Virus record (IMG/VR): IMGVR_UViG_3300050119_000104
Coordinates: 1-64,000 of that record
Source: a virus
Strand: one strand, 5' to 3'
Length of the DNA: 64,000 nucleotides
The notes under the pieces were generated by a model. The model ran no database searches and was not told the origin of the DNA. It worked only from the letters and a program-made list of their open reading frames with translations. Of this stretch, positions 6,528-46,198 are shown one piece after another. Numbering within the stretch: position 1 is the first letter of the stretch; each line of letters opens with the position of its first letter. Position numbers and translations under genes: made by a program.

Positions 6528-6770
6528 CGTGCTTATCCGGTTGACACCCACAAAGGGTGACACGATCCGGTATTCCTCTACAGGACGCAGAGCACTCTGC
6601 GCGGCTCCCGAAGGAACCTTATTCATGACCCTTTTCAGCCTTTTGAACTGCCCCAATCGGGGTATTGGTCATGGAAACTCGATCTTACGTGTGCTTTCAA
6701 TCAGTCGAGAGCGATTGTCAAAACGAAGAAAAGCAAAATTTCAGGTAGCTGTCAAGCGTTGGGTGTCATC
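6528..6770 (-). mobile_element. Divergent copy of the IS1595-type MITE/omega-RNA-like cassette (copy A)
   Basis: TIR CGTGCTTATCCGGTTGACACCCAC at 6528; shares GCGCAGAGTGCTCTGCGTCCTGTAGAGG and the CTTGACAGC..AATTTTGCTTTTC block with the other copies; far TIR degenerate. Confidence 0.85.
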
Positions 6771-6842
6771 GTTTGATATCTTCTTCGCTTCCCGGGAGCC
6801 TCTGATACGGCGGATGGCGGTTCTCATATAGCATCCTTCGAC

Positions 6843-7364
6843 TCACTCGAAGTGCACATCTTTTTCTTCGGTGTCCAGCCAAATTTCCTCACGGATAAGT
6901 TCGCAGGCTTTCTCGGACTTCCAGTAGTCGGCGACAATCTGACCGGTGGCCATAGGCTCGGCGAGCGCCTCGTACCAGTAGGCGACGCGCAAATGGCCCT
7001 TCGAAGATGCACGCTCGTTCTGCGCTTGTTGCAGCAGAAATTCTTTGGTGGCTTCGCCGAGCGGCAGACTGCCGATCATATATTTGGTGAATAGCTCGCG
7101 CGTGGCTTCGGCGGCTTTACGCAGCGACGATTTGGATCGCCGTACACTGCCGTATGTTTTGCCTTTGACAAGTGTCTTGCTGATAACGCGGTGACGGAGA
7201 GTGCGCCGCACAGCAGCGTTCGCTTTTGCGTGGATGTGTTCGAGGCCGACCGTAATCACGTAGATGGCGCGGTCTTTAGAGCCACGATAGATTTTCTCGG
7301 CAGCATTTCGGATGTCGATACTGTCGGCGATCACTTGTAGAACATCATCTTTCATCGAGGCCAT
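6843..7364 (-). CDS. Hypothetical protein directly downstream of the TIGR-like array
   Basis: 173-aa ORF with AAGGAAG RBS; starts about 20 nt after the last array repeat. Confidence 0.65.
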   Translation of the reverse strand: MASMKDDVLQVIADSIDIRNAAEKIYRGSKDRAIYVITVGLEHIHAKANAAVRRTLRHRVISKTLVKGKTYGSVRRSKSSLRKAAEATRELFTKYMIGSLPLGEATKEFLLQQAQNERASSKGHLRVAYWYEALAEPMATGQIVADYWKSEKACELIREEIWLDTEEKDVHFE

Positions 7365-7386
7365 GGGGAACTTCCTTTTTATCAGT

Positions 7387-7759
7387 CGGTACTCTCAACA
7401 TGCACGGCTCGCTCTCGAGCTTCGGTACTCTCTCAGCTTTCGGCTCGCTCCACGACTTCGGTACTCTCCGCGTTCTCGGCTCGCTCTCTGTTTTCGGTAC
7501 TCTCCGTGTTTTCGGCTCGCTCCACGACTTCGGTACTCTCCGCGGTCTCGGCTCGCTCCACGACTTCGGTACTCTCCGCGTTCACGGCTCGCTCTTTGTT
7601 CATCGGTACTCTCGGCGGGCTGCGGCTCGCTCTCGTGCCTCGGTACTCTCACTCCTAGACGGCTCGCTCCTGACTTCCGGTACTCTCCCTGTGCTCGGCT
7701 CGCTCACGGTCCTCGGTACTCTCTCGCGTCCCGGCTCGCTCTTGGTTCATCGGTACTCT
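7387..7759 (-). repeat. TIGR-like dual-repeat array (AGCGAGCCG / AGAGTACCG alternating, 9-10-nt spacers)
   Basis: On + strand, 11 exact CGGTACTCT and 10 exact CGGCTCGCT alternate strictly with 20 variable 9-10-nt spacers; unit 36-37 nt; directly downstream of a Nop/IS110-like gene. Confidence 0.85.
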
Positions 7760-7800
7760 CATAGACTGTCGGCTGTGAGATCGCGACCGGCGTAGTTTCG

Positions 7801-8171
7801 TTAGGCCGCCTTCTTAAGCTGACGACCGTAGTACGCCTTCTCGAATCCGGGGAACATATCCATGTTCGGGACGCGTATCTCATGTGCATGGCCAAGCACT
7901 GAGATTGCAAACGGCTTGGGAGGAACGACACCGAAGTACTGCCAATACCAAACAGCGTGCAGATGTGACAAGAAAATCTTGACCGCATAGCGTCCGGCCA
8001 TCTTGTCGAGGTACGCAGGCGGCACCTTACCTGCGGCAAGGAGCGCCTTGTTAGTCTTATCGGTGACACCCTTGTAGACCGCAGCCTTCTCAGCAAAGCC
8101 GCCGCGCTCGTTGCGCGCGACGTATATTTCTTTCTTTGCTCGATAGAGCTTCCCGTAGAAGCTATCGGGAT
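7801..8171 (-). pseudogene. C-terminal part of the Tas-like (Nop/IS110 C-terminal domain) protein, separated by the IS1595 insertion
   Basis: DPDSFYGKLY...AGRYAVKIFLSHLHAVW continues in frame with the N-terminal part once the IS and one ATCCCGAT copy are removed. Confidence 0.8.
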
Positions 8172-8211
8172 CATGCTTATCCGGTTTGAACATACATCCC
8201 CCAAAGGTTGA

Positions 8212-9255
8212 TTAGTCATGATGGGTTTCCATCGTCGGATGCTTCCAAGTTCCCTCGTAAATCCCGGCATAGGTCGGGCCTTCGCCGTTGGTCCCGATGC
8301 CGAGCAGCGAGCGGAAGGCGTTGAACGGGTAGAAGCGCCGGTTAAAGCGGAACGTGAACTCATTGAGGTAGGCTTGCAGATGTTGCGGCTCGACGCGCCC
8401 GTGGTGCGTGCCCTGCAACCACGCCTTGAGGTTCGAAAACACAAGGTGGACGATGGGCAGAAATTCCTCAGCGACTTCCGGGTTTCCGGCTTCGACAACC
8501 GGCAGATGGGCGTAGCCGCTCATGCCGAGCTTGTTATAGGCCGGTGCCGCGTCCGTGATGACTATCGCGCCCGGCTCGACGGCCTGTTCCACAAAGCCAA
8601 CCAGAGACTTAGCGGATCGGTCAGGAACGATTTCCAGCCGCAGGCGGCCAGCGTAGCGCCCGCCGCGTCGCATGGGCTTATCGCCCTTCTTAGCCGGACG
8701 GGTGCGAACCTCAACAGCGGCAGATACGATAGTTTTATCATCAGCATGCGGGCCACGCCCTTCACCGCGCAGCATACCGCCGATGTAGGTTTCATCAACT
8801 TCGACATGATCGCCGCGCGCCAGATTGCTACCTATCCGGTCGCGGCCTTGTCGGACCATGCCAGCGCGCAGCTTATGCAGGATTTGGAACGCGGTTTCGT
8901 ATCGGGTAAGGCCAAGCTGGCGCTGGAACTGCACGGCAGACATGCCGGGTGTCATGCTCGAAACGAGATAGGCCGCCCAAAACCATACCGTCAGCGGCGT
9001 GTGCGTGCGCTGCATCACGGTATCGACCGTCAGCGACGTTTGCTTGCGGCAGACGCGACACGTCAGGACGCTGGTACGGGTCGCCATGCGGAACGGCTCG
9101 CCTTTTTCCTCGCAATGCGGACATACGAAACCCTTGGGCCACTTCGCGCCCTCCAAGTATCTGGCGCAAGCGGCGTCATCCTTGAACAACCGCTGGAAAT
9201 CTCTGAGAGATTTGGGGAAAGGCAAGTGTTCCCATTGGAGAATGTCGGGGGCCAT
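8212..9255 (-). CDS. IS1595-family DDE transposase
   Basis: N-terminal Zn ribbon CPHC..CRVC; VEVDETYIGG, VITD, VHLVFSNLK (D-D-H-K pattern of the ISSod11 group), YLNEFTFRFNRR. Confidence 0.95.
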   Translation of the reverse strand: MAPDILQWEHLPFPKSLRDFQRLFKDDAACARYLEGAKWPKGFVCPHCEEKGEPFRMATRTSVLTCRVCRKQTSLTVDTVMQRTHTPLTVWFWAAYLVSSMTPGMSAVQFQRQLGLTRYETAFQILHKLRAGMVRQGRDRIGSNLARGDHVEVDETYIGGMLRGEGRGPHADDKTIVSAAVEVRTRPAKKGDKPMRRGGRYAGRLRLEIVPDRSAKSLVGFVEQAVEPGAIVITDAAPAYNKLGMSGYAHLPVVEAGNPEVAEEFLPIVHLVFSNLKAWLQGTHHGRVEPQHLQAYLNEFTFRFNRRFYPFNAFRSLLGIGTNGEGPTYAGIYEGTWKHPTMETHHD

Positions 9256-9262
9256 AGCTTGC

Positions 9263-9448
9263 TCAACCCCTTTCCGCTGCTGGGAAAATTCCGTGCGGCC
9301 CAGTTCCCTCGTCAGTGGGCTTGGGCTCTGGGCGCTTTGGGCCAGGGATTACTCGTCGGCCATCTTCCGAGTACGTCGCAAGACAGTAGGGGCAGGTCCG
9401 CACAATCCCGGCCCAAAACGAATGTGAGTGAGTGCAAAGCCGGGTCAT
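9263..9448 (-). CDS. IS cargo gene, small Cys/His-containing protein
   Basis: 61-aa ORF coupled by ATGA overlap to the upstream cargo gene. Confidence 0.45.
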   Translation of the reverse strand: MTRLCTHSHSFWAGIVRTCPYCLATYSEDGRRVIPGPKRPEPKPTDEGTGPHGIFPAAERG

Positions 9449-9819
9449 GCCCCGACCCCAAATTGGGCATTATCGACCTTTGCCGCGCGAACGGCGTCCG
9501 GGGTGCGCTGCGCGTGCCAGTTCTTATCGAAGTCTTCCATTGCGGCTTCTGGCGTCTCACCGAAACCGCAGACGCCGCTCATGATGTCGTCGCCATAGAG
9601 GGCGCACCATTGGCTCCCGTCCGCATAGACGGAAGGCCGAAACAGGACAGCCGGGCGCTGCATTTCCCATGTGACGGTCATGAACTGATCGCGGATCATT
9701 ACTTGGGAGTGCGAAATATCAAAGGCTTGGTGCGCCGCCTCGCGGACAACCTCGCCAATATTGCCGCCGCTGATCCGGCTGCGAACCGCGTCATAGATTG
9801 CTTGGTAATTGTCGCTCAT
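9445..9819 (-). CDS. IS cargo gene, phage-type hypothetical with HicB-like C-terminal motif
   Basis: WCALYGDDIMSGVCGFGETPEAAMEDF resembles the HicB N-terminal G-T-EEA motif. Confidence 0.55.
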   Translation of the reverse strand: MSDNYQAIYDAVRSRISGGNIGEVVREAAHQAFDISHSQVMIRDQFMTVTWEMQRPAVLFRPSVYADGSQWCALYGDDIMSGVCGFGETPEAAMEDFDKNWHAQRTPDAVRAAKVDNAQFGVGA

Positions 9820-10361
9820 GGCGCTACCCCAAATTCTGGCGTGCGAGGGTCAAGGTTGCGTTGCAGCGGGTCCATGCCGCCGAGTTTTTCGATAGCCGCA
9901 AGGCAAGCGCTAATCGCCTCGCAGTATCCCTTGGCGACAAGGTCTTGTTCCAGAAACGTGCCGCCGAGCGAGTTAATTTCATGCCACGCCTGATCAAGCG
10001 CCCAGTTAGCTTCCGCCTCGCTGTTGAGGCCGTTGCAAACGGCGGCTGCGATGGCAAGGTTTTCTTGCCTAGACAGTTCCCTAGCGCCAGTAGCCGCGAC
10101 ATCGACCCCGTCGCGGCTAACCCATCCCATTCCGTCATCGCCGCGCAATTCCCTAAAGCTGTATCCCTCTTTGTGGATCATGCGAGCCTCCCGATGCCGC
10201 GCGTGGCGATAAGGACGTTCGCCGCCGCGATGGGCGAGAAGCCCGACGCTAACAGGTGGGCTAGGCGTAATTGCTCTTCCGTGCGGAGGCGTGGCTGCTC
10301 GCCGCGCTTCGTGAGGGCGGTTTGTACTTTTACAAAGAAACTGTCGTTTTTCATGGGTCAT
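9816..10361 (-). CDS. IS cargo gene, hypothetical (true start may lie further downstream)
   Basis: 181-aa ORF overlapping the next cargo gene by ATGA. Confidence 0.5.
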   Translation of the reverse strand: MTHEKRQFLCKSTNRPHEARRAATPPHGRAITPSPPVSVGLLAHRGGERPYRHARHREARMIHKEGYSFRELRGDDGMGWVSRDGVDVAATGARELSRQENLAIAAAVCNGLNSEAEANWALDQAWHEINSLGGTFLEQDLVAKGYCEAISACLAAIEKLGGMDPLQRNLDPRTPEFGVAP

Positions 10362-10421
10362 CTCCTATCCAATGGCAGCAATCTATCAGAGGTATTTGTA
10401 TGTGTCAACCGGATAAGCATG

Positions 10422-10967
10422 ATCGGGATGATTGCTCGACCGTTTGAAACATTCCCGCGCGTGATGCGCGAGTTGTTTCATGTCGGCGCTGAATGGGCGC
10501 TTCTGGCCTTTTTCCCATTTCTGATCGGGGTTGAGACCAGAAAAGCTCCAAATATGTCCGACTGTCGGGCACTTCTCGATGTCGATGTGAGCAAGATAAC
10601 CGGCCGCGACCACCGGGCCAATGCCGATCTGCTCCATCATCCATCGACCAACAGAAGACACCTGAGCGTATTCGCCAAGAGCCTTGGCGATGTCCTTCTC
10701 AAGTCGGACCTGTTCGTCGATGTAGTGTTGAAGCAGGAAGGCAATTTGAGTCTTGCCTTCTACGGTCTCAGCATCATCACCGATTTCCGGCTGGATGTTT
10801 TCGACCGGCGTCTTATCGCCGATGTGGCGGGTCTGCATGTCGCCAGCTTTGCGCTTATCCTGCGCGTCGTGGTAGTTGAAAACCAGCGCCCGAACTTCAG
10901 GGGCTGTCATTTTGGTAGCAGTGAAAACTAGCTCAGACGAGAGCGGGGTTCGGGGAGTACGTTTCAT
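10422..10967 (-). pseudogene. N-terminal part of the Tas-like (TasA-type, Nop domain, no nuclease) protein
   Basis: Coiled-coil EVRALVFNYHDAQDKRK, GIGPVVAAG, HIWSFSGLNP, KRPFSADMK; no N-terminal DEDD RuvC; rejoined product about 302 aa. Confidence 0.8.
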
Positions 10968-11345
10968 GTGAGTGTCCTTTGTTTGCACATGGTTGGGTTC
11001 CTAACGGAGATGGATGGAAACATCAATCGAATAATTTTTGGTTTTATAGTTAAACGATCACGTCGCTTCTACGTTTCATGTCGGGTGGCTCCGCTCCTAT
11101 TTGTGATCGTCACACCAATCACCGCCGAAGGCCAGTTCACATAGGTCAGATAGTCAATGCACTGCTGCAATGTTCGCCGTGAGCCGGCCCACTTTCCAGC
11201 AACGTAAATGTCATGAAGAATCGTGTCACCCGTCTCAGGGTCGTGGAACGTCGTTGACTCCGCGCGCGAGGTTTTCGCGCTGATAGTTTTGCAGTGAGTA
11301 GGTCACCCCGGCGGCCCCGTCAAGTGCGGAGGCGCATGACTGGAG

Positions 11346-11470
<125 letters not shown>

Positions 11471-11759
11471 CGTGTGCGTGTGCGTCTTCGTCGCTTCCAT
11501 TTTCTTGATAGGGCATGGCGTGAGTTTTAGCAGCGGCGCATTATCGAACGTGATGGGTTTGGGGATATTCTCTTCGGGGCCGCACGCATGCGCGCCAACA
11601 ACGATGATGCCGAGAGCGAGCACAAGACCAAATAATCGACTCGCGTAGCGCTTGAAGCACGGCGGCGACTTCGCGCCAGCCGCGACCGAAAATAGCGGGT
11701 GACCGTGGAAGCGTTCCAGATACGCGCGAGCGATAGGCAGGGTGTTGGTCATGTACCGT

Positions 11760-11990
11760 TCACCCTCCGGCGGTCCGGGTCTGTTTCCCAAATCCAGCCG
11801 GTTCGGTGCCAATCTGCAGCTCGCCCGGCGGCAATCCAGTCGTCCATATTTTTGCCATCCCTCCTACTCGGATGACCGCATCCTTGAGATCGACGCGGTA
11901 GAGGGCGATCAAAGCTTTCTCAAGCTCTGGCGTCATCACCACTTTGGCAGCACCGCTATTGATCATTTTCTTTTTTACTCTTTCCGCCAC
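11760..11990 (-). CDS. Hypothetical protein
   Basis: 76-aa ORF with AAGAG RBS, downstream of a TTGACA site near 12025. Confidence 0.45.
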   Translation of the reverse strand: MAERVKKKMINSGAAKVVMTPELEKALIALYRVDLKDAVIRVGGMAKIWTTGLPPGELQIGTEPAGFGKQTRTAGG

Positions 11991-12359
11991 GGCAAAGACT
12001 TCTGATACGCATCGTAGCGAATGTCAAGCTCGCGATCCACGCAGCGTCGGTTTTCTTTTTTACTTTAGCGCGAGCGTGCGCATTCTTTTTAGAGCGGGTG
12101 ATTTCACACTCGACACACTGGCCGCAGGCCGCTGTGACCTTTTGGACAGGGCTTACCCTGATAGTGAGTGAGTCCGATGCGGTCGCTCATTGTTCCCACG
12201 GTTCGCGCGGCGTGAGCTTGACCTTTTTAGTATAGCGCACCCGGCGCGGGCGAGGGAGCGTCGGGTCCATCGAGCAATGCTTCTCGTTCAGCGCGATGGT
12301 TGACGAGGTACAGATAGACCGCGCCGAGGATGAGAGTGATCGTTTCCATTGGTTCTTTT

Positions 12360-12833: not shown

Positions 12834-12839
12834 CAGTTA

Positions 12840-13700
12840 GGTTTTCAATTTGGCTATCTCAGCACTCTCGGATCGTTCTCAGATTATCCGAGATGGGCAA
12901 AGCTTTATTTATCAATTACTTAGATCACTATCTCATCATTCTCATCAATTTGAGAGATAGATTGATAGAGTAGTACTATAGGTTGTAGTAGGTACATGTA
13001 ATACACTGCGTAGGAAATGACTTGGCGAGATGCTGAGTATGCTGAGAGCGAGCCCAAAAGGGGGCTTAAGTCATTGATAACACTGATAAACACTCATCTC
13101 AGATAGTGGTAAATCATCCGAGAGGTATCCGAGAATGGATGCGCCTTACGCGATATGGCTGACTCCCGGCGTCGGCTCGACCGGATCATTGAAGAATTCC
13201 TCTTTCTCGGGCCGCGTTAACCTTAACGCTTAACCTTGCTCGCGTACGAAGTCTGCCCACCAAAAAATCCCCTGTATTATCAAGTACTTAGCTCACCCGT
13301 CTGCCCACGATCCTTTCTTTTTTACATTAACAGTGCCCCTTTAGGCCCACTATATAGTGTATATTTAAGGTTAATATGCCCACTGAGGCTAAAAGTTAAG
13401 GTTAACCGCGTCGGTTGGGTGGCTGTTAACCTTTATTAACGAGCGGTCAGTCGTATTTAACCTTAATTCTATACTATAGTTGCGCCGCTCGGTCGCATTA
13501 ACCTTAATTCTATACTATGGTTGCGCCTTGAGGACTCGAAGTTTTCTTTTTTACCCAGCCGCATTAACCATGGTGGGCAAATTAACCCTCTCGAAGGTTG
13601 GTGCTTGACAAGTCCCGGAGGGTGGCTCAGCTACGGGGAAGGTCTACTAAATTGATCGACTATGTGCAAAACGTATGAGGGGTACAATCTGTGCTTCGTG
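12840..13700. other. AT-rich non-coding divergent region with iterated motifs (origin or control region)
   Basis: Repeated TCTCAG/ATCCGAGA motifs (12856-13140), about a dozen TTAACC/GGTTAA motifs (13217-13590), 30-bp direct repeat at 13457-13486 and 13498-13527; gene orientation switches here. Confidence 0.65.
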
Positions 13701-13768
13701 CGATTTTCTCAAAAAGAATAAATAAAAAAGAATAAATAAAAAAGAACCATCAATTTTCTCAAAGCGAA

Positions 13769-14021
13769 CATGCTTATCCGGTTGATGCCCAATGCTTGAC
13801 AGCCACCTGGAATTTTGCTTTTCTCCATTCCGACAATCGCCTCCGATTGATTGGGGGTATCTAAAGACCATGTTTCCGTCGTCTGTTCGCGCCGAAAGGT
13901 AATCCGAGAGGTAGAACGGCGATGAATAAGGTCCATTTCGGTGGACCGCGCAGAGTGCTCTGCGTCCTGTAGAGGAGAGCCGGGTTCGTGTCGCCCATTG
14001 GGCGTCAACCGGATAAGCACG
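13769..14021 (+). mobile_element. IS1595-type MITE/omega-RNA-like cassette (copy C, 253 bp)
   Basis: TIRs CATGCTTATCCGGTTGA(T)GCCCAATG / CATTGGGCGTCAACCGGATAAGCACG; no direct TSD. Confidence 0.92.
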
Positions 14022-14051
14022 CGCTTTGTCATTCGGAAACCGGTTCACACA

Positions 14052-14594
14052 ATGACCAACATCATGCTCGATATCGAAACGCTCGGACTGGACTCGACTG
14101 CCGTCGTCCTCAGCATCGGCGTGACCAAATTCACACTGAATGAAGCGGCACCACTGATCGGCGACTCAATGTTGTGGACGCCAAACTTGGCGGAGCAATT
14201 CGCCAAAGGCCGCAACGTCAACCACTCCACGCTCGACTTCTGGCGCAAGCAACCAGACGCAGCCAAAGCGAGTTGGCTCTATCCGTCGAAACCCGAACCC
14301 GTTCATACGGCACTCACCGAATTGAGCCAGTTCATTAGTAGCGACTACGAAGTCATGATGTGGGCCAACGGGATCACGTTCGACTTCGGCATCATGGCGT
14401 CGCTCTATCATGACTTTGAAATCCAGGTGCCGTGGAAGTACAACGCAGTCCGCGACGCACGAACCATCTATCGCGTGCTGCCAAAGATACGAACGCGGCC
14501 GGAAGGATCGGAGCAAGGCCCTGAACATGATCCGGTCGCCGATTGCATCTTCCAAATTTGGAATCTGTGGGAGCATTGGCCATTCGGCAATTGA
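14052..14594 (+). CDS. DEDDh 3'-5' exonuclease (phage exonuclease VIII/RNase T-like)
   Basis: IMLDIETLG, WANGITFD, RDART, HDPVAD motifs. Confidence 0.85.
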   Translation: MTNIMLDIETLGLDSTAVVLSIGVTKFTLNEAAPLIGDSMLWTPNLAEQFAKGRNVNHSTLDFWRKQPDAAKASWLYPSKPEPVHTALTELSQFISSDYEVMMWANGITFDFGIMASLYHDFEIQVPWKYNAVRDARTIYRVLPKIRTRPEGSEQGPEHDPVADCIFQIWNLWEHWPFGN

Positions 14595-14636
14595 CATCCG
14601 CACACTGTCGTGCCAATTTTCAGAAATGCACTGGAG

Positions 14637-14871
14637 CATGCTTATCCGGTTGACGCCCAATGCTTGACAGCCACCTGGAATTTTGCTTTTCTCCGTTCCG
14701 ACAATCGCCTCCGATTGATTGGAGGTAGCTAATGTTTCCGTCGTCCGTTCGCGCCGAAAGGTAGAACGGCGATGAATAAGGTCCATTTCGGTGGATCGCG
14801 CAGAGTGCTCTGCGTCCTGTAGAGGAGAGCCGGGTTCGTGTCGCCCATTGGGCGTCAACCGGATAAGCACG
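14637..14871 (+). mobile_element. IS1595-type MITE (copy D, 235 bp)
   Basis: Both TIRs; 8-bp TSD CACTGGAG. Confidence 0.95.
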
Positions 14872-15219
14872 CACTGGAGTAAGCGCAGGGCGGCTAACTG
14901 GTGCCGTCATTGTGATCTTGAAAGCATGAAAGAACAACGCAGTTGTTGATGACGGACTTAAACACGCAGATGGCGATTTCTTTGCCGAAGTCGGCATCTA
15001 TGAGAATTCCTGAAACTGGCAGTGGAGTCGCCGTGATAGCGAAGCTGATCACGCTGTGGCGGGCGATGAAGCGCCCAATCCCAACATGACCGTGACCAAC
15101 GAAGAGTTAGAAGTCGCCTGCCGTGCCACGTATGGACCAATGGACCGGATGCCCGGTGAGAAGCGGCAGTACGCTCGAAAGTTCTTAGAAGCCGTCGATG
15201 CGTATCGAGCGCGGCCCAC

Positions 15220-15453
15220 ATGACCGCGACCATTCTAAAATTTCCGACTCCCGCCACTGTGACCCTTCGCGACGAGCGCTCGGTCCAAGCGTGGATCGAT
15301 GAGCTAGTGTCTGACCATCCCGAGCTTGGGGGTATGGAGCTTGAGGAAATTTTTGTGAAGTACATCTGCGAAGGAATACCAAACCCTATTCAATCAAGCC
15401 TTGGCGCGCGCATACTTTTCAGATCGAAAGTTCGCTACGTTCCACCCCGTTAG
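15220..15453 (+). CDS. Hypothetical protein
   Basis: 77-aa ORF. Confidence 0.4.
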   Translation: MTATILKFPTPATVTLRDERSVQAWIDELVSDHPELGGMELEEIFVKYICEGIPNPIQSSLGARILFRSKVRYVPPR

Positions 15454-15471
15454 CTCAGTGATAGAAGGCTT

Positions 15472-15706
15472 CATGCTTATCCGGTTGACGCCCAATGCTT
15501 GACAGCCACCTGGAATTTTGCTTTTCTCCGTTCCGACAATCGCCTCCGATTGATTGGAGGTAGCTAATGTTTCCGTCGTCCGTTCGCGCCGAAAGGTAGA
15601 ACGGCGATGAATAAGGTCCATTTCGGTGGATCGCGCAGAGTGCTCTGCGTCCTGTAGAGGAGAGCCGGGTTCGTGTCGCCCATTGGGCGTCAACCGGATA
15701 AGCACG
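15472..15706 (+). mobile_element. IS1595-type MITE (copy E, 235 bp) inserted at the tip of the TnpB element's left TIR
   Basis: Both TIRs; 8-bp TSD GAAGGCTT. Confidence 0.95.
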
Positions 15707-15707
15707 G

Positions 15708-16846
15708 AAGGCTTATCCGGTTGATACCCACAGGCGCTAAATCCAGATGATCTTGACCTACAAATATCGCATCAAGAACCGGAACGCCAAGTCGGCTTTG
15801 CGCCGCCACGCCTTTGCGGTCAATCAGGTGTGGAATTACTGCTGTGCGCAACAGCGCGATATCGAGTCGCGTTATCGGGCCGGAGCGCCGAAGCGCAAAT
15901 GGGCGTCACACTATGACTTGCAACGCCTCTGCAAAGGCGCGGGAGCGATGTTTGGCATTCACCAACAGACCATCGGCGGCGTGTGCCGAACTTTCGCGCA
16001 AGCCCGCGACAAGGCTCGGCACGCCCCGGCGTTCCGCAAGAGCTACGGCGTGAAACGGTCCTTGGGTTGGATACCGTTTGAGGGCCAAAGCCGCCAGATC
16101 AAAGACGGCGTTGTAACCTATCTCGGCAAACGCTTCTACCTTTGGGGCCTCAAGCGGCGGCCTATTCCCGCTACGGTCAAGGGCGGCGCGTTCGTAGAGG
16201 ATGCCTTGGGGCGTTGGTATGTGTGCCTCACGGTTGAGGTCGAACGCACCCCCGCAACCGGCAACAAGGCCATCGGCATCGATTTAGGACTGAAAAGCCT
16301 CGCCACGCTCAGTGATGGCCGCAAGATCGAGGCACCACAAATCTATCGCCGATATGAACAACAGCTTGCCGCGCTACAGCGCGCAGGAAAGCGGCGTCAT
16401 GCGAAGCGGTTGCACGCGAAGATCAAAGCGTGCAGGGCTGATTTTCTACATAAGATTTCGACGGAGCTTGCTGGTCAGAACGCGATCATCGCAGTGGGCA
16501 ATGTCAATGCACGCGCCTTGGCGTCCAAGTCAGTCCTTGATGCCGGGTGGTCCTCATTCCGAAAGATGCTCGCCTACAAGGCGACCGACTATCGGGAGGT
16601 GGACGAAAGGTTCACGACCCAAGATTGTTCGGCGTGCGGTGCACGCGGTGGCCCAAAAGGTCAAAAAGGTCTTGGAATAAGGCAATGGCAATGTTCATCC
16701 TGTGGCGAAAGCCATGACCGCGATGTGAACGCGGCTTTGAACATTCTCGCCATTGCCCGGCGCAGTGCTGCGCCGCCTGTTGAGGAATACCGGAGAGCGG
16801 CATGACACAGGATTTAGTGCCCGTGGGTGTCAACCGGATAAGCACG
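15708..16846 (+). mobile_element. Non-autonomous IS1595-TIR element carrying tnpB
   Basis: Left GCTTATCCGGTTGATACCCACAGGCGCTAAATC versus reverse complement of right end GCTTATCCGGTTGACACCCACGGGCACTAAATC (30/33 identical); no IS605 end hairpins. Confidence 0.85.
15747..16805 (+). CDS. tnpB: TnpB RNA-guided nuclease with rearranged RuvC-II
   Basis: GIDLGLK, AVGNV, VDERFTTQDCSAC, CSSCGESHDRDVNAALNI. Confidence 0.95.
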   Translation: MILTYKYRIKNRNAKSALRRHAFAVNQVWNYCCAQQRDIESRYRAGAPKRKWASHYDLQRLCKGAGAMFGIHQQTIGGVCRTFAQARDKARHAPAFRKSYGVKRSLGWIPFEGQSRQIKDGVVTYLGKRFYLWGLKRRPIPATVKGGAFVEDALGRWYVCLTVEVERTPATGNKAIGIDLGLKSLATLSDGRKIEAPQIYRRYEQQLAALQRAGKRRHAKRLHAKIKACRADFLHKISTELAGQNAIIAVGNVNARALASKSVLDAGWSSFRKMLAYKATDYREVDERFTTQDCSACGARGGPKGQKGLGIRQWQCSSCGESHDRDVNAALNILAIARRSAAPPVEEYRRAA

Positions 16847-16934
16847 CCAAGGGCTAGATCATGCCTACGCAATGTGGACTGTACGTGTCCCATTATGGGA
16901 CAGTCGAGGCGGCGGCCTTCATATAGGGTCAAAA

Positions 16935-17111
16935 ATGAAACCGAAAAAATACTACCGCATGTTCGCAGCGAAGCGCGACGGCGTACTCAATTGCGGCTTC
17001 ATTTCGTTCACTGCGGCCAACGTGCGCTACCGAGTCGGTCTGCTTTATGAGGGCTGGCAGCGAGCAAAGAAAAAAGGTTGGCGCGTCGTGCGAGTTTGGA
17101 TTAGTGAATGA
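16935..17111 (+). CDS. Hypothetical protein
   Basis: Short basic ORF. Confidence 0.4.
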   Translation: MKPKKYYRMFAAKRDGVLNCGFISFTAANVRYRVGLLYEGWQRAKKKGWRVVRVWISE

Positions 17112-17359
17112 AGTGCCCCCACTGTGGCAACGCCATCAAAGCATCGACGGAGGAAATAATTCAGTCGGTGATCGACGCGTTCGCCATCGGCGCGGTCGTT
17201 CTTGATTTTGGGGACAGAGGTTTTGTAACGTACCCACGCAATCCGCAAGACACGATCACGTTGGACCGAGAGTGACCATGAGCCTTGAACAGTGGGCCGG
17301 AGAATATGTCAATTTCGATGAGCTTGGCATCCAGGATCGAAAGAGCGGAAGATACTCAC

Positions 17360-17539
17360 ATGAGTTTTCATTGCCCCAACTGTGATAGCCCGACCGTCGT
17401 GCGCGAGACTCGTGGAGAAGTTCGCATGCGCCGATGCAAAGGCTGCAATAAAGTTTTCCGCACGGAAGAGACCGAACTGGAAGAACCACGAGCACCAAAC
17501 AAACCCGGCAAGCCAAAAAAGAAAGTAACACGACGATGA
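17360..17539 (+). CDS. Small Zn-ribbon protein (Ogr/Delta or NrdR N-terminus-like)
   Basis: CPNC...RMRRCKGCNKVFRTEE. Confidence 0.6.
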   Translation: MSFHCPNCDSPTVVRETRGEVRMRRCKGCNKVFRTEETELEEPRAPNKPGKPKKKVTRR

Positions 17540-18025
17540 AACACCCAATAGCCCTCATCATGCTCGGGATAGTCTGATGACCTGGGGTAGCAATCCATCT
17601 TACGATATCGTTCCATGCCCTTGGTGCGGCAATGACATGGTGGACAACACGGACGAATGGCCAACCACTCACATGATGCAATGCCCCCAACGCGGTAATA
17701 AAGCCGTGAGGCCTTCCGTGCTCGTACTCTTGATCTGCGGTTATGCCGCCATGGCTCTGCTCTTTGCGAGTGTGTTAGGACTTATCTAATAGCCGCCCTT
17801 GACACCGAGACTTTTTTAGATCAAAAAGAAAATGGCAGGCACGAGTGTGAGGACCAGAGCAGTGCAGGTTGAAGAGCAGTGCGGTTCAAAACAGTCGGGC
17901 CTGTTGGAATTTCAGTCACGGTTCAACATGATCGTAAACGTCGCACGTAACATTCCTCAGGCCAGGGCATTGGCCGTTGAGCCTCCCAAGCGAACGCTAA
18001 GGCTCAGCTTTTCGCGGTTGATCAC

Positions 18026-18253
18026 ATGACACGCGGAAGGCGCACCAATGACGCACGGATCGGGGCGATGCTCGCGGCCGAAAAAATCTACGGCAGCGCA
18101 GGATGCGCAATTTGCGGCGGTGTCGAGAGGTACGCGTCGAGTGGAGCGTGCGTTGCTTGCTCTAAATGGCAGGCGCGTCAGCGCTACGTTGTCAACCGAG
18201 TGGAGATCGCTAAGGCTGATGCTGCCCGTTACCAAGCGAGGAAGTTGAAATGA
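18026..18253 (+). CDS. Small Cys-motif protein
   Basis: CAICGGVERYASSGACVAC, similar module to the 12360..12833 product. Confidence 0.5.
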   Translation: MTRGRRTNDARIGAMLAAEKIYGSAGCAICGGVERYASSGACVACSKWQARQRYVVNRVEIAKADAARYQARKLK

Positions 18254-18451
18254 TTTGGGTACTCATGATCATGGACAACGACGGGGCTGACGGGGATTGC
18301 CGACGCATTGTCTCTGTTCACAAAACAGAAGAGGGTGCGGCCGCAGCAGAAAAATTTATCGCGCATCAGCACTCTTGGATCGATGGCCCTTACGTATTGA
18401 TGGATTGAGGAATGGAACAGGAGATGGTGCGAGATAGCTTGCGTGCGACTC

Positions 18452-18707
18452 CAATCTTATCCGCCGGTTGACGCCCAATGCTTGACAGCCACCTGGAATT
18501 TTGCTTTTCTCCGTTCCGACAATCGCCTCCGATTGATTGGGGGTAGCTAAAGACCATGTTTCCGTCGTCCGTTCGCGCCGAAAGGTAATCCGAGAGGTAG
18601 AACGGCGATGAATAAGGTCCATTTCGGTGGACCGCGCAGAGTGCTCTGCGTCCTGTAGAGGAGAGCCGGGTTCGTGTCGCCCATTGGGCGTCAACCGGAT
18701 AAGCACG
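18452..18707 (+). mobile_element. IS1595-type MITE (copy G), left TIR degenerate
   Basis: CAATCTTATCCGCCGGTTGACGCCC (3-nt insertion); right TIR intact; no TSD. Confidence 0.9.
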
Positions 18708-18726
18708 ACTGCGCCCGTGAGGTTGG

Positions 18727-18966
18727 ATGATGCCTGACGACAGAGTGTGTGAGGACGGCGAGTTTTGCATCTGTATAAGAAATGATTGGGATCGCGAGAC
18801 GTGTGAGCTTTTCCATTTCCCAAGTCCCAAAACGCTGCGCTCCGGCCGCTCGACTATGCTCACCGAATTGCGCGACCAGGGGCACGACCGCATCCGCAAA
18901 GAGAATGCCGAGACCCGCGACCGCCGCGCTGCGCTCCGCGCTACGCTGCCTAGGAAACATCGATGA
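18727..18966 (+). CDS. Hypothetical protein between two MITEs
   Basis: 79-aa ORF with GAGG RBS. Confidence 0.4.
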   Translation: MMPDDRVCEDGEFCICIRNDWDRETCELFHFPSPKTLRSGRSTMLTELRDQGHDRIRKENAETRDRRAALRATLPRKHR

Positions 18967-18973
18967 CAGAATA

Positions 18974-19208
18974 GCCCAATGCTTGACAGCCACCTGGAAT
19001 TTTGCTTTTCTCCGTTCCGACAATCGCCTCCGATTGATTGGGGGTAACTAAAGACCATGTTTCCGTCGTCCGTTCGCGCCGAAAGGTAATCCGAGAGGTA
19101 GAACGGCGATGAATAAGGTCCATTTCGGTGGATCGCGCAGAGTGCTCTGCGTCCTGTAGAGGAGAGCCGGGTTCGTGTCGCCCATTGGGCGTCAACCGGA
19201 TAAGCACG
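18974..19208 (+). mobile_element. IS1595-type MITE (copy H), left TIR deleted
   Basis: Begins at GCCCAATGCTTGACAG; right TIR intact. Confidence 0.9.
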
Positions 19209-19237
19209 CATCTGTCATCTGAAAGGGAAGAACCCCC

Positions 19238-19641
19238 ATGCTCATTGAATGGTGGAGGGGCGGCAAGCCACAAGGTCAGTGGTTGTCGGTTCAAGACATG
19301 ATTGCGGATATCGGACCGGGGAAGTTCGAGCTATTGCCCGGCGACAAAATACTTTTCCTAGAGTCATACACATTCGCCAAATTCCGCGCTGAGGTAAATG
19401 CCGCGCGGACGCCGAAGCCCACGCTGCGGCTAGTAACCAAAGAAAGACAGGAACCTTGACAGGGATGATAGAGCCGTTCTACCTGATCCCCATGAACGAC
19501 ACCATACTCGATCTGCCAGCCTTCCTGCCAAGCCGTCGCGCCGCCGGGACTCGCGTCATGCTACGTTCGAACAACAAGCGATATCGAGGCGGCCCGGCCA
19601 TCATCGTTCGAGCCGAAGGTACTGCGCATGACTCAAGATAA
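19238..19641 (+). CDS. Two coupled small hypothetical ORFs (19238..19459, 19456..19641) ending at an orphan TIR
   Basis: Overlapping stop/start; followed by a TIR of the type at the TnpB element end. Confidence 0.4.
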
Positions 19642-19672
19642 AGGGCCTGTGGGTGTCAACCGGATAAGTACG
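19626..19672 (+). mobile_element. Orphan right end of an IS1595-TIR element
   Basis: GCATGACTCAAGATAAAGGGCCTGTGGGTGTCAACCGGATAAGTACG closely resembles 16800-16846. Confidence 0.75.
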
Positions 19673-19860
19673 AGCGAGCAAACATACCGCGTCTCAGGTG
19701 GCTCAGATGTGTTCTACGTCGTGACTGGCGAAGGCAAACGAGAAATCACCGTCACGAAATGGACCCGTAGCCGAGCGAAAGCGGAAGATTGGTGCGTCAC
19801 GCTAAATCGCACCGCGCAAATCGAAAGTGATCGCAAACGGCAGACCAAAGGATAAGGTCG

Positions 19861-26071: not shown

Positions 26072-26073
26072 CG

Positions 26074-26329
26074 CGTGCTTATCCGGTTGACGCCCAATGG
26101 GCGACACGAACCCGGCTCTCCTCTACAGGACGCAGAGCACTCTGCGCGATCCACCGAAATGGACCTTATTCATCGCCGTTCTACCTCTCGGATTACCTTT
26201 CGGCGCGAACGGACGACGGAAACATCATGGTCTTTAGCTACCCCCAATCAATCGGAGGCGATTGTCGGAACGGAGAAAAGCAAAATTCCAGGTGGCTGTC
26301 AAGCATTGGGCGTCAACCGGATAAGCATG
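26074..26329 (-). mobile_element. IS1595-type MITE (copy J, 256 bp, inverted relative to local genes)
   Basis: Both TIRs; no TSD; its CATG end could supply the ATG (26327) of the ORF running to 26530. Confidence 0.92.
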
Positions 26330-27406: not shown

Positions 27407-27777
27407 TGGACCAGTACACCGTCCAACTTCTAATGACTGTCTTTTTCTTTTGCATCTTCGCGGGCGTCTGAATAATAGACGGAGAAAAAAGAACCCTGAT
27501 TACGAGCGCCTGCGCTATTTAAAGAACAAATCCAAAAACCCAAAATATCTTCGTCAACAATATCTCGCCAAGCTGAAAAGGTGGAACAAACACAACCGCT
27601 ACTGAATTTATTTTCGATATTGATATGTCTGAGGAATTTTCAACTAAAATTTGAAGATCAAAGACTTAGCTTGTTTGATCGGAGATTTGACGTGTACCCT
27701 ACAACCCACCGTCGTGCTATACTTTGTTCACGGTCAAATACAGATCGGGCTGTTTGAAAAGTGAATAGGAGAAATAG

Positions 27778-28350
27778 ATGACGCGCGTGTACGATGCTAT
27801 CGTAGACGTGGGCCACAAAGCGTACTGCGGTCCACTTGCGATATCCAGGCTGACGGGTGTTCCGATCAGCCACATCGAAAAGATGATCCGCAAGTTGCGT
27901 TCCGATTGGGGCAAAGGTAGGAAGCAACCAATCAAAGGAACGTACACTTGGGAAGTGGTCAAAGTTCTTGAGCGCCTTGGCTGCAAGGTGACGAAGCTCA
28001 CGATGGTAGAAAACACCATCGGACGTTTCGTCGAGGACATGAAGCACCTCGATCATGTTTTCTTGGTTGAAGTTACGGGTCACTTTGTAGTTGTTCACAA
28101 GGACACCCTCAGCGACTCGTTCCTGAGACCTAATCGGCAAGTGCAAAAAGTGTGGCGGGTTGAAGCTCCCGCCGAGCCCCGATACAAAGCGCCGACGCCA
28201 AAACCACCCAAGCCTAAGCCCGACATCAAGCAAGTTCGGCGCGAACGAGTTGTGCAACGGCTCGCGGCTTGGCAGTCGAAACTAAAACGAGCGGAGAGTG
28301 CGATCCGTAAACTCAATCGACAGGTTCGGTACTACAGCCGGGCCGCTTAA
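27778..28350 (+). CDS. Hypothetical protein with possible papain-like (C39) Cys-His pair
   Basis: YCGPLAISRLTG ... GHFVVV; basic C-terminus. Confidence 0.55.
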   Translation: MTRVYDAIVDVGHKAYCGPLAISRLTGVPISHIEKMIRKLRSDWGKGRKQPIKGTYTWEVVKVLERLGCKVTKLTMVENTIGRFVEDMKHLDHVFLVEVTGHFVVVHKDTLSDSFLRPNRQVQKVWRVEAPAEPRYKAPTPKPPKPKPDIKQVRRERVVQRLAAWQSKLKRAESAIRKLNRQVRYYSRAA

Positions 28351-28411
28351 CGAAAACGTAACCCGTCACGGTCTATAGACTGTGACGGGCAGTATTGAAC
28401 AGGAGAACAAC

Positions 28412-30542
28412 ATGACCGATCTAACAATCCCCGACGATCTCTCGATCCCGAAATTCCTGGACTTGAAAATTCCAGCGAACCACACGGCTTGGAAAGAGGG
28501 TCACAAAATTTGGACGCCCCGGAAGGTCAAGGCCGAAGCCAAGGCAAAGATCAATCGTGATAGTGAAGGCCGCTCGTTGCCGAAGAACATGGATGAAACT
28601 TCCTGGGCATTCTTGCGCGCCCAAGAAAAGGAAACCAAAGCTGAGGTTGAAGCGGATAAAGCTGAGCGCTTCCGATTTTTGGAAGCTTTGCGCCAAGAAA
28701 AGGCTCGGGTCAAGGCAGCGGCGAAGGCGGTTAAGCATGCCATATGATGGCGCTGGACAATACCGATATTGAAAGGCTAGGAAGAGACCATGACGATGAA
28801 ATGTGTTCAGATTGTCGGGGCAACATGTCCTGATCCGAGTCAGTGACGGGGACGCACATGAGCAGTAACCTTATAGACTGCGATCTCTATCCTTGGTGCG
28901 ATAGCCAGGGTTGCGTAGGTCATCCTGAGACTTGCCACCGCGCAGCAGATTTGCGTGCCGGTATTGACAAGCGTAATCCATTCTCAAAGGGGTCACGCAC
29001 TTTCGGACACCTAGGTACCAAGCAGGAATTGCTTCGGCGCTTGCAGGAGCTACAGCGGGGATATCAGGAAGCAGCCGCGCCAATCATCCAACAACTCGCG
29101 GATATCGTGGCGCTCGAACCGCCACCGCCGACTATTCCGCGCGATCAGATATCGCCGGAAATTCTGAAAATTATAAAAAGGCAAGAAAATGACCAAACTT
29201 GAAAAGGCCCTCTATCACACACGAGTCGCGCTCACGATTGCATTTGCTCTCGGACTCGTTGCAATCCCTTGTGCACAAGCCGAGGTGCTCGCGCTGCCGC
29301 AAACCGACAACGGTTACAGCTACTGCCAGGGCGGTCTCTGTGTGTGGGGTTCGGGCGCGCTGCCGACTCCCGGCGTGCATCAAGTGCCCCAGCCCTCGTC
29401 CGAAGATCGAGAAGCTGCCGCGAAACACGAGCATGAGTGGGCGGAGCGGTGCAAGCCGACAATCGGCTATGACGCCTATGGTGTCGCGCGCTACACTTAT
29501 GCCAAAACCGGTTGCGAATTCGGTAATGGCCGATGAAGTTTTATCTCGCGCTCGTGTCACTTCGGTTCAATCAATTCGCGTGGCGGCTGTGGATGTTAAG
29601 CGAACGATGGAACCAAGAATGCATCGACCGATGGCTGTTCAATAATAGATAGGTTCATGCTTATCCGGTTGACGCCCAATGCTTGACAGCCACCTGGAAT
29701 TTTGCTTTTCTCCGTTCCGACAATCGCCTCCGATTGATTGGGGGTATCTAAAGACCATGTTTCCGTCGTCTGTTCGCGCCGAAAGGTAGAACGGCGATGA
29801 ATAAGGTCCATTTCGGTGGATCGCGCAGAGTGCTCTGCGTCCTGTAGAGGGAGAGCCGGGTTCGTGTCGTCCATTGGGCGTCAACCGGATAAGCACGGGT
29901 TATAATCCGGCCCAAAGTTTATAATACCGGATTGCGGTTCGCGAGCGTTCGTGCGAAAGTCTCGGTCGAAACACAGGAGGCAATCACATGGCGACTGTTC
30001 GAAAACTTTTGAAGCGCGTGAAAAAGACGATCAGACAAGCGCAAATGGCAACGGCCGATGCGAGATTTGCTACGCAGGAAATTCACGATCTCATCGATGC
30101 GATGAATGCTACGCCCCCTCTTACAGACCCGGAGTCGGAAAGCCCGGCGACTCCGGCGGAAGATGAGACACAAAGCCCGGCGGCGTATTCGGGCGGCTGC
30201 TGAGAGAGTGGTTTACGAAGATACGCTCGATAATCCGTTCTCGACGTAACTGCAAAAAAGGAAGTCCCCAAAATGAGCAACACATCTGGAAGATGCTTTC
30301 GAGCTTTCCGCCGAACAAAGAAACGGCTGAATAGTCAGGGCCGTCCTTGGGCGCGACCGATCAGAACCAAAATCCCGCTCTCCCTCCGAATGTTCATGCT
30401 CCCTGGTCATGGACAAGCGAGTCAGAAATCAGTCACGCGTGACGTGCTGGCTGGTATCGTTCAGCGATATACGGCGGCGTGGATGGCTTACGTCAAGAAA
30501 ATGCAGGCTGAGAAAGCTGCCGCTGCGAAAGCCGCCAACTAA
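28412..30542 (+). CDS. Small hypothetical ORFs (28412..28747, 28858..29202, 29189..29536 exported, 29988..30203, 30273..30542)
   Basis: GGAG/AGGA RBS before most starts. Confidence 0.5.
29656..29897 (+). mobile_element. IS1595-type MITE (copy K, 242 bp)
   Basis: Both TIRs; no TSD; same variant as copy L. Confidence 0.92.
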
Positions 30543-30622
30543 ATTTACCGGGTTGCGCCGCTTTCCGGTCTGCGCTAAACCATGGCTGGTCCCCCTTCCT
30601 GAATTTTTCAGGAGAAATCGCC

Positions 30623-30847
30623 ATGGCTACACTTACCACGAAAGCCCGCAAGGCAATCCCCGCAAGCAAATTTGCTTTGTCCGATGGACGCTTTCCGGTG
30701 GAGAACAAAGCTCACGCGGTCGCTGCCAAGCGCCTCGTCGGGCGATCCTTATCGAAGGGCAACATCACGCCACCGGAAGCCGCCAAGGTTCGGCACCGCG
30801 CCGACGTTGTGCTCGGTGAGAACGACTCGAATTACCACAACAAGTAA
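30623..30847 (+). CDS. Small basic protein (DUF6582-like)
   Basis: RKAIPASKFAL..GRFPVENKAHAVAAK; AGGAG RBS; promoter motif at 30544. Confidence 0.6.
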   Translation: MATLTTKARKAIPASKFALSDGRFPVENKAHAVAAKRLVGRSLSKGNITPPEAAKVRHRADVVLGENDSNYHNK

Positions 30848-30912
30848 CGCCCCTTTAACCTCATAACTATCGCGTACTTTGTAGGACACGAAAGTTGTGA
30901 TAGGAGATGGTC

Positions 30913-33046
30913 ATGGCAAAAGATGCACGCGGACACGGTAGCGAAGGCGGTCGCGGCGGCGTAAGTCGGCCGGTCGGATCAGGTTTGCAATTCGGCGTTG
31001 CGTCAAAATTCAAATCAAAGGGCGGCGCGGGCATGAAGTCGGATCGAGATCACACCTCCGATGCGGCGCGCACCGTTTCCGATCTGCGCTCGCGCATGGC
31101 GACCACTGGCGCAGGCCACAAAACCGGACTCATGCAGGGTATCAAGAATTTTCTCGGAGGCAGGTGATGGCAAAGGATGCAAAAGGTCACGGTTCGGAAG
31201 GTCGCAGTGGCGGTCAAAAGCAAAGCTGGGATGCGAAGCGCGGAAGCTATGCCAAAGGATTTGCAGGGCCTACGCCGGATGGCGGTCATGGAGTATCTGG
31301 TTCACAGATAAAGCAATTCATGGCTGCTAGGCAAGCCGCAGTTACCGCCCCGGATTTAGGTGCCCCATCTGATCCGGCCGCGCATCAAACTGGCGTAGAA
31401 GCCGCGCGCAACACGCCGCGCGAGTCGCTTCGCGGTAGCATCAACAGCAATCCAATCGATGCCTCGGGTGAAGGCGGCGAAGGCCAGCCTACCGCACGCA
31501 ATCCGCACGGCATTCATATAGGCTACACGAAGGCGTGATTAGACAAGGCGCGCAAATGCGCCTAATCTTTTTTCTAACAACGAAAGCGAAAACACCTCCA
31601 CAACAAAGCGGCATCGGAGTAAAGTCATGGCGAAGGACAAAGGCGGACACGGTTCAGAAAGTCGCGGCGGCAGCGCACTCACCGCGTCTGTCTCTCGCGG
31701 TACTCCGATTGCAGGTATTCCAGCGTCCGGTGGCCAGCCGGTCGCATCCAACGAGCACGCGGCGGCAACGCTCGCGAGCGGCCCGAAGTCGGCACCGGTC
31801 GCGACGCACGACATGATGGGGCGCTCTCAGGAGTCGATTGAAGGCGGCGAAGGCCAGCCTACCGCACGCAATCCGCACGGCATTCATATGGGCTACACGA
31901 AGGCGTGATTAGACAAGGCGCGCAAATGCGCCTTCCAGCGTCGAGGCCGTGCGTGATATGCCGCGCGCCGCGCTAGCTTGGCGGGATCGTCAAAACAGTA
32001 TCCAACAAAGCATGCTTATCCGGTTGACGCCCAATGCTTGACAGCCACCTGGAATTTTGCTTTTCTCCGTTCCGACAATCGCCTCCGATTGATTGGGGGT
32101 ATCTAAAGACCATGTTTCCGTCGTCTGTTCGCGCCGAAAGGTAGAACGGCGATGAATAAGGTCCATTTCGGTGGATCGCGCAGAGTGCTCTGCGTCCTGT
32201 AGAGGGAGAGCCGGGTTCGTGTCGTCCATTGGGCGTCAACCGGATAAGCACGCAACAAAGGACGCTAGGGAAAGCTGCGTCGTCCCGAGAGGTTCGCAGC
32301 AAAGCCGATCTCACTGGACGCGCGAGCTATTGGGGGCAATTGAAGGACGCAGGCGGTCACGGTAGCGAAGCACACGCGGCGCATCAGGCGGGCACGCTCG
32401 ACGCGCTTCCTCGGATAATTCGGAATGCCGACGACGATACCTTGCTTGACATATCCCGCTGGGAGCGGCAAACATTGCAGGGTGCTATGTTAGCGCATGG
32501 TAAAACTCAGTGGGACGAGAACCAGGACAGTGGGAGCCTGGACCCGAACCGCCCAGCAAAGGCAGCGAGCAAATGAGCAAAGATGCAAAAGGTCACGGCA
32601 GCAACGCACGCGGCGCACATTCTAGTGGAGTCGATCAGGTCGGCAAGCCTGCGCCCCAGGTCAACGACGCGGCGATGAAAGTCATCAGTAGCACGAAGCC
32701 CGGCGAAGGCTTCTCTATCACACCGGGCGGCAGTCAACCGACAGACGGTCACATGGTTGCCCTGCCAAGCCGTACACAGGATGTCGATCCCGCTGCGTTA
32801 TCCGGGCCCGGCGGTCGTGCCATCATTGACGCGTTCACCGCGAAGAACGCGGACGTTTTCAGTGGCAACCCGAATATGCATGTCGGTGGCTGGCTCGATC
32901 CCGACACGCACAAGCTTTCACTCGATCCGTCCGAGAATATCAAGGATCGCAAGACAGCGATTGCCTCTGGCATAGCGCGCAATCAAAAAGAGATTTGGGA
33001 TGTGAAGAATAAGACCGGGATAAAGACAGGTGGCAGTGGTACATGA
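30913..33046 (+). CDS. Five short Gly-rich paralogs beginning (M)xKDxxGHGS (30913..31167, 31167..31538, 31627..31908, 32340..32576, 32573..33046)
   Basis: Shared N-terminal motif visible in the translations. Confidence 0.75.
31469..31933 (+). repeat. 95-bp direct repeat (31469-31563 and 31839-31933)
   Basis: One mismatch; duplicates the C-terminus GGEGQPTARNPHGIHxGYTKA and the downstream sequence. Confidence 0.9.
32011..32252 (+). mobile_element. IS1595-type MITE (copy L, 242 bp)
   Basis: Both TIRs; 8-bp TSD CAACAAAG. Confidence 0.95.
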
Positions 33047-46185: not shown

Positions 46186-46198
46186 CGTCTTCCCCGGT

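Follow-up and report, generated by a model that had tools for sequence, protein, structure and literature searches.

The 64,000-nucleotide DNA stretch analyzed here (the window, in whose coordinates all positions are given unless the genome is named) is the first 64 kb of viral record IMGVR_UViG_3300050119_000104, a phage record of 117,459 bp that is rated complete. By Pfam and open reading frame (ORF) scans the window encodes a primase-polymerase, an intein-bearing terminase, a portal and a capsid protein, and near-identical DNA is present in many peat and permafrost metagenomes. It also contains nine copies of a short element with inverted-repeat ends, and we consider here how these elements are related to an IS1595-family transposon and to the tnpB genes of the same genome, and whether they carry a guide RNA (omega-RNA) scaffold for TnpB nucleases. 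All nine, which a preliminary description had located, were recovered by repeat finding and alignment as follows (R1 is a covariance model built from 11 tnpB-linked right ends only; MITE, miniature inverted-repeat transposable element):

6528 to ~6775, minus strand: MITE copy A, right end intact, left inverted repeat missing; R1 71.9 bits
13769-14021, plus strand: MITE copy B, no 8-bp duplication; R1 68.5 bits
14637-14871, plus strand: MITE copy C, 8-bp duplication CACTGGAG; R1 70.6 bits
15472-15706, plus strand: MITE copy D, 8-bp duplication GAAGGCTT
~18455-18707, plus strand: MITE copy E, left end damaged
18974-19208, plus strand: MITE copy F, left end absent
26074-26329, minus strand: MITE copy G, no 8-bp duplication; the sole copy in the window that is antisense to its flanking genes
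29656-29897, plus strand: MITE copy H, no 8-bp duplication
32011-32252, plus strand: MITE copy I, duplication CAACAAAG

The elements are 235-256 bp long, have 26-nt inverted repeats, and contain no conserved ORF and no transposase gene of their own. Eight of the nine are 93-100% alike, with two small indels as the main difference between them, and copy A is a diverged relative (72-85% identity to the others). Within the window there are 19 occurrences of the repeat core GTCAACCGGATAAG, where 0.37 would be expected, and two further full copies lie beyond it, at genome 95814-96054 and 102018-102258, along with fragments. The 8-bp target duplications previously claimed for three copies are exact and belong to C, D and I; in the whole genome five copies have them, these three and the ones at 95814 and 102018. 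The site into which copy D inserted is the outermost bases of the left end of a tnpB element (below). Searches of GenBank phages and PLSDB plasmids with the MITE gave no match.

An autonomous element of the IS1595 family is present in the same window:

8172-10421, minus strand: autonomous IS1595-family element, left end 10404-10421, degenerate right end 8172-8189
8212-9255, minus strand: its DDE transposase coding sequence (CDS), Pfam DDE_Tnp_IS1595 (1.3e-34) plus a Zn ribbon

Two small ORFs precede the transposase gene, and the degenerate right repeat directly follows its stop codon. The limits of the element were set by comparison with relatives that are 80-95% identical and have the same end layout, and copy A was rejected as its native right end because the element stops at 8172-8189, as it does in those relatives. 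The 18-nt terminal repeat that the copies were said to have in common with the autonomous element is indeed shared, the left end at 10404-10421 being identical over 18 nt. A tandem array with a 36-nt period (7386-7747) adjoins the element.

We searched for this 18-nt end in viral contigs, species-representative genomes and metagenomes, and found it in 106 stretches of viral contigs, in 29 of species-representative genomes (Alphaproteobacteria, Acidobacteriota and others) and, among the matches listed, in more than 120 of metagenomes. Among the matches listed, an IS1595 transposase is near such an end in ~70 fetched loci, and exact 8-bp duplications flank 86 independent insertions of the end family. 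The target preference of these insertions is weak and palindromic, and in most elements with these ends what lies inside bears no relation to the interiors of the copies studied here. Movement is also visible at two of the phage sites: a DNA contig from a permafrost sample (X9) joins 32002 to 32253 and so omits copy I and one copy of its duplication (eight letters are shared at the joint, whose shorter side is only 22 letters), and the H site (loose end 29639) is read through without the element by a diverged contig from an RNA library. The assignment of the copies as non-autonomous IS1595-family elements, that is, MITEs, is supported. Elsewhere, an IS1595 element of 1168 bp that has these ends is present in at least 12 copies in one metagenome-assembled genome of the Alphaproteobacteria (L113-L137), and 8-bp duplications flank most of them.

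The same inverted repeats also enclose tnpB genes. The two tnpB loci in the window are:

15708-16846, plus strand: tnpB-only element flanked by the inverted repeats; CDS 15747-16805, 352 aa
46182-47302, minus strand: second tnpB, without inverted repeats; CDS 46199-47302

The phage genome has five tnpB genes in all, three of which stand alone between these repeats (the one at 15708-16846 and two identical copies beyond the window); the others are the repeat-less gene at 46199-47302 and one that is distant. A paralogue of the TnpB at 15747-16805 is encoded at genome 93271-94323. The record itself ends (genome 116344-117459) inside the third repeat-flanked element, in DNA identical to 93227-94362, and this contig break is probably an assembly effect of the repeated tnpB element. 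The protein encoded at 15747-16805 has the Pfam domains OrfB_IS605 and Cas12f1-like_TNB, and its RuvC/TNB half aligns to ISDra2 TnpB (E 4e-24). Its canonical RuvC-II Glu position is a Gly, and the rearranged signature with a Glu six residues ahead of the first CxxC, of the kind described in PMC10711439, is matched by four close intact TnpB paralogues; judging from their sequences, these four are probably active, with a RuvC site that is rearranged but complete. Repeat-flanked tnpB elements are also present in L222, L102, L115, L119, L177 and L189, the last with a perfect duplication, and one metagenome contig (L149 438-3055) has a frameshifted tnpB, whose right end is omega-type, together with a 93-aa ORF and an IS1595 transposase, all between a single pair of repeats.

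The 3' regions of the tnpB genes have a common RNA plan, which was derived from alignments of 11-12 such regions (A2 and A3) and from an alignment enlarged by four repeat-less or variant relatives (A4). It opens with a branched domain (Sa'), closed by a helix that stops immediately ahead of an AAUAAGG that hardly varies. Next come a long stem (Sb), in which the second half of the zinc finger is encoded, the hairpin Sc, with six bases in its loop, and a mini-hairpin of three pairs. In the last stem (Sd) the CCGG of the inverted repeat provides the 3' strand, and a tail of nine bases follows. In A4 98.8% of the cells pair, against ~39% with slid partners, and 10 of the 18 pairs have compensatory changes, a number reached by none of 500 shuffles. 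RNAalifold gave no consensus for the upstream tnpB domain, and the cause is bulge shifts; for this domain a hand-annotated model, R2, was made. The omega-RNA region of the repeat-flanked tnpB (~16620-16846) scores 101.7 bits with R1 and 86.8 bits with R2. That of the second tnpB (46182-46390) has the same plan with a different pseudoknot pair and scores 59.4 bits with R2, and the layout of a hairpin plus CCGGTAGTGGA previously noted in this gene is real.

The right-hand limit of the scaffold can be placed as follows: The loop of Sc is complementary to five bases of the tail (the common type is GUGCU:AGCAC, with AGCAC followed by G), and the two strands change together, being GCGUU:AACGC in L003, where the repeat tip differs, and, by hand reading, AACGU:ACGUU in tnpB2 and L004 and GACGU:ACGUC in L006. 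These make four co-varying loop/tail pairs, all computational, and a pseudoknot between a loop and guide-adjacent bases is known for TnpB RNAs (PMC10711439). Because the pseudoknot strand is formed by the last bases of the inverted repeat, the scaffold would end at the element tip, one base before it, and the flanking DNA, from the duplicated 8 bp onwards, would serve as the guide. The preliminary description had the scaffold finish at an internal GTCAA, which is what plain sequence alignment to repeat-less relatives suggests; this end is not supported, since the covariation of the pseudoknot puts it at the tip of the inverted repeat. For the same reason, namely that the pseudoknot partner co-varies at the repeat tip, we rejected a GTCAA end with the repeat tip as a fixed guide. 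The right ends are also distinctive in sequence: in the viral set all eight omega-type ends read CACG, compared with 8 of 119 others (p = 1e-8), and the left ends of the copies read CATG, an asymmetry that the pseudoknot accounts for.

Is this scaffold present in the MITEs? In copy I (plus strand) its parts are arranged as follows:

32011-32036: left repeat
32038-32043: TTGACA
32081-32100: hairpin
32119-32154: Sa
32155-32161: AAUAAGG
32160-32177: Sb, with a UUCG loop
32178-32194: Sc, pseudoknot loop 32185-32189
32196-32205: mini-hairpin
32211-32243: Sd
32244-32252: tail, pseudoknot strand 32247-32251

All nine copies score 65-72 bits with R1 (E ~1e-17 to 1e-19), whereas ends with no more than the repeat in common (the left ends of the MITEs and of tnpB, and the insertion sequence at either end) score 11-24 bits, and the last 76 nt of the MITE are 64-78% identical to tnpB elements by blastn (E down to 4e-13). 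The original case for homology was a 19-nt match of copy A to tnpB 16776-16794; the 18 of 19 identities stand and the copy A coordinates were one base off (they are 6566-6584), and the homology is much wider than those 19 nt, covering the whole ~135-nt scaffold in both sequence and fold. Unconstrained minimum free energy folds have the identical domain order in the MITEs and in the tnpB regions. In the MITEs the long coding stem Sb is reduced to a 7-bp stem with a UUCG cap, and in the common lineage the apex of Sa is capped by GAAA; copy A, whose upstream domain is the most tnpB-like of all the copies, retains the full three-way junction of the tnpB domain together with a comparable CAAAAGG loop. 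Between the lineages represented by I, A and L001 the stems show covariation, and the few substitutions among the near-identical copies preserve pairing. In addition, there is a second omega-only MITE family, 375 bp long and AT-rich, with the same ends (L192 853-1227, minus strand, and also L182), which keeps AAUGAAUAAGG, Sc, the mini-hairpin, Sd and the tail, and homologues are present in L001 and L158.

Such hairpins might instead act at the DNA level, as binding sites for the transposase or a host factor that are needed in cis for mobility, and the recurrence of the word TTGAC beside the left repeat would fit such a role. Nevertheless, neither the autonomous element nor most of the other elements that share these ends have the hairpins, loops of the UUCG and GAAA types and a pseudoknot from loop to tail are characteristic of RNA, and the same fold lies inside tnpB coding sequence, so that we consider a purely DNA-level function extremely unlikely.

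The reading that we favor, with a probability of roughly 0.6, is that the DDE transposase at 8212-9255, or a relative, moves these IS1595-family MITEs, and that their cargo is a protein-free, minimised omega-RNA scaffold that is used by the resident TnpBs. Transcription would run towards the right end, with read-through from phage genes a more likely source of it than a weak internal promoter, and the RNA would continue ~16-20 nt into the flank and be loaded by a TnpB nuclease of the same genome. With each insertion one guide would be gained, whose match is the insertion's own flank (the uninterrupted allele), and the MITE would be a mobile guide-only gene serving resident TnpBs in trans, as do the standalone omega-RNAs of IS200/IS605 elements (cited in PMC10691335). 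As to expression, eight of the nine copies point in the same direction as their flanking genes (p = 0.02), which is compatible with expression by read-through or with selection against insertion in the antisense direction. In peat RNA libraries, contigs run across the boundary of a MITE right end with its flank (14010-14237) and also cover a scaffold variant resembling that of copy A; they give neither strand nor ends.

Several observations weigh against this reading. DNA carry-over in the peat RNA libraries is a possible source of these assembled, strandless contigs. R2 recognizes the upstream domain of the MITEs only weakly (8.7-16.7 bits, best E 0.05), if always at the collinear place. Rfam gave no hits in the window at gathering thresholds, so that no family there matches, and at E<=10 nothing relevant over 13700-19800, a range that includes a tnpB 3' end. 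The promoter that the MITE RNA was thought to have is not supported: CTTGACA is present in every copy and the -35-like TTGACA is kept in all lineages, but the box is a perfect -35 only, the degenerate -10 proposed with it fails a sigma-70 consensus scan, and that scan found no sigma-70-type promoter in the copies; L192 has one consensus-like site in the sense direction (TTGACT-17-TAGTAT). From its sequence, CTTGACA could have been left over from the start of tnpB (ATG ATC TTG ACC), or it could be a site for the transposase. In the genome and in 1.6 Mb of loci the predicted guides have no match other than their own flanks, with the sole exception of copy D, whose flank is itself a left repeat, and no conserved motif resembling a target-adjacent motif (TAM) was found upstream of the duplications, either in end-family insertions or, by hand, in seven omega-bearing ones. 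The TAM may be very short, or only some insertions may give usable guides, or the role of the RNA may be a different one. Finally, retention of a piece of scaffold does not by itself prove function, because simple deletion has also produced derivatives of tnpB elements in which the right end is preserved (L114, 378 bp, and L163, ~115 bp).

Those derivatives are an argument for regarding the MITEs as inert deletion products of repeat-flanked tnpB elements, in which the scaffold has no RNA function and survives only as the neighbor of a right end that the transposase requires; in such a product CTTGACA could be what remains of the region around the tnpB start codon, and neither a promoter nor a TAM was found. 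However, the interior is dispensable for transposition, since unrelated interiors are present between the same ends in other MITE families; even so, compensatory changes have preserved the pseudoknot and every helix in diverged lineages. The coding tips, moreover, have been replaced by stable GAAA and UUCG loops with no sign of decay, and the independent 375-bp family holds the same plan. We therefore judge inert derivatives to be unlikely. A different possibility is that the RNA is made and does not guide cleavage, acting instead as a decoy or regulator that titrates TnpB or as a modulator of IS1595 transposition. About a dozen copies facing four or five tnpB genes in one 117-kb genome would suit titration, as would insertion sites at which no TAM logic is discernible. 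Against this, the scaffold end and pseudoknot lie exactly at the would-be guide start, published standalone omega-RNAs guide in trans (PMC10691335), and nothing found here is specific to a decoy; we hold such a role to be very unlikely.

How does the favored reading, a MITE-borne omega-RNA used by resident TnpBs, compare with known systems? Standalone mobile omega-RNAs that act in trans and PATE-like gene-less IS200/IS605 elements are known (PMC10691335; bioRxiv 10.1101/2023.03.14.532601), as are TnpBs that go with DDE transposases and inverted ends, some of them solo copies moved in trans (PMC10691335; PMC13565253), so the novelty suggested in the preliminary description was overstated. The review PMC13565253 lists ISL2, IS630 and IS1031 for DDE-associated TnpBs, and folding of inverted repeats into a guide scaffold is known for Fanzors (PMC10711439). 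In the accessible literature, our search found no text that names IS1595 and none that describes a DDE-type MITE with RNA only. Each ingredient is already known, and the combination is new.

PATE and standalone omega-RNA elements are like the phage MITEs in being protein-free and mobile, with the scaffold at the right end and the nuclease elsewhere in the genome, hence used in trans. They differ in having asymmetric hairpin ends, no target duplication and a Y1 (HUH) TnpA, in place of which the MITEs have 26-nt inverted repeats, 8-bp duplications and an IS1595-family DDE transposase; no Y1 TnpA was present among the ORFs scanned, and the MITEs do not belong with the PATEs. The DDE-associated TnpB branches of PMC10691335 are alike in that tnpB is less than 250 bp from a symmetric end, solo copies are mobilised in trans, catalytic sites are rearranged and some branches occur in viruses; they differ in that the accessible text neither names IS1595 nor describes gene-less, RNA-only derivatives of DDE-type elements. 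Fanzor1 and Fanzor2* (PMC10711439) similarly are nuclease genes captured by a transposon with terminal inverted repeats and target-site duplications, with an inverted repeat folded into the scaffold and a rearranged RuvC-II glutamate (ExxxxxxCxxC). The present case, by contrast, is prokaryotic and phage-borne, it keeps the pseudoknot that is lost in Fanzor1 (PMC10711439), and its 8-bp duplication has no fixed sequence and so cannot be a constant part of the scaffold. Finally, ISDra2 TnpB with its omega-RNA (PDB 8EXA, 8H1J, 8BF8) has a comparable multi-stem scaffold with a pseudoknot from a loop to guide-adjacent bases, and the TnpB at 15747-16805 differs from it in its relocated RuvC-II Glu (Gly at the canonical place) and in its transposon ends.

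Two remnants of tnpB-type right ends complete the set of related features in the window:

19582-19672, plus strand: tnpB-type right-end relic; R1 35.5 bits
42829-42925, plus strand: decayed tnpB-type right-end relic just downstream of the portal gene; 19 bits

A site within the second of these, downstream of the portal gene (42875-42909), was considered as a guide target and rejected, as it is part of the decayed relic. Among unrelated features of the window, a terminase-like ORF (38317-40734) contains an intein splicing domain, and a region at 52114-55572 encodes a 1152-aa protein with collagen triple-helix repeats that is followed by an IPT/TIG-domain protein and then a glycosyltransferase. 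A 100-nt direct repeat, 97% identical, is present at 31464-31563 and 31834-31933, and a DNA contig of another sample skips 31837-31933 within it.

It is unusual for a single phage genome to tolerate about a dozen such elements and five tnpB genes. One use for this load, which we consider quite unlikely, would be that the dispersed MITE guides and the TnpBs form a homing or exclusion device in co-infection, with the guides directed against the uninterrupted alleles of related phages. If so, MITE-free competitors would be cut and then either lost or repaired from the MITE-bearing genome, and MITEs with their linked phage alleles would be driven through the peat phage population, in which the H and I insertions are polymorphic; RNA-guided competition between phages is a testable idea that the MITE and tnpB load of this phage raises. 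If the MITE RNA is active, it would be a naturally minimised TnpB guide scaffold of ~135 nt from which the protein-coding hairpin tips have already been removed, and would be useful for compact editors. It would also show how the pseudoknot strand of a guide RNA can be supplied by the end of a DDE transposon, which would be a prokaryotic parallel to the capture of Fanzors by eukaryotic cut-and-paste transposons (PMC10711439) and would bear on why TnpB was deemed to be tied to IS200/IS605 and IS607 (PMC10711439).

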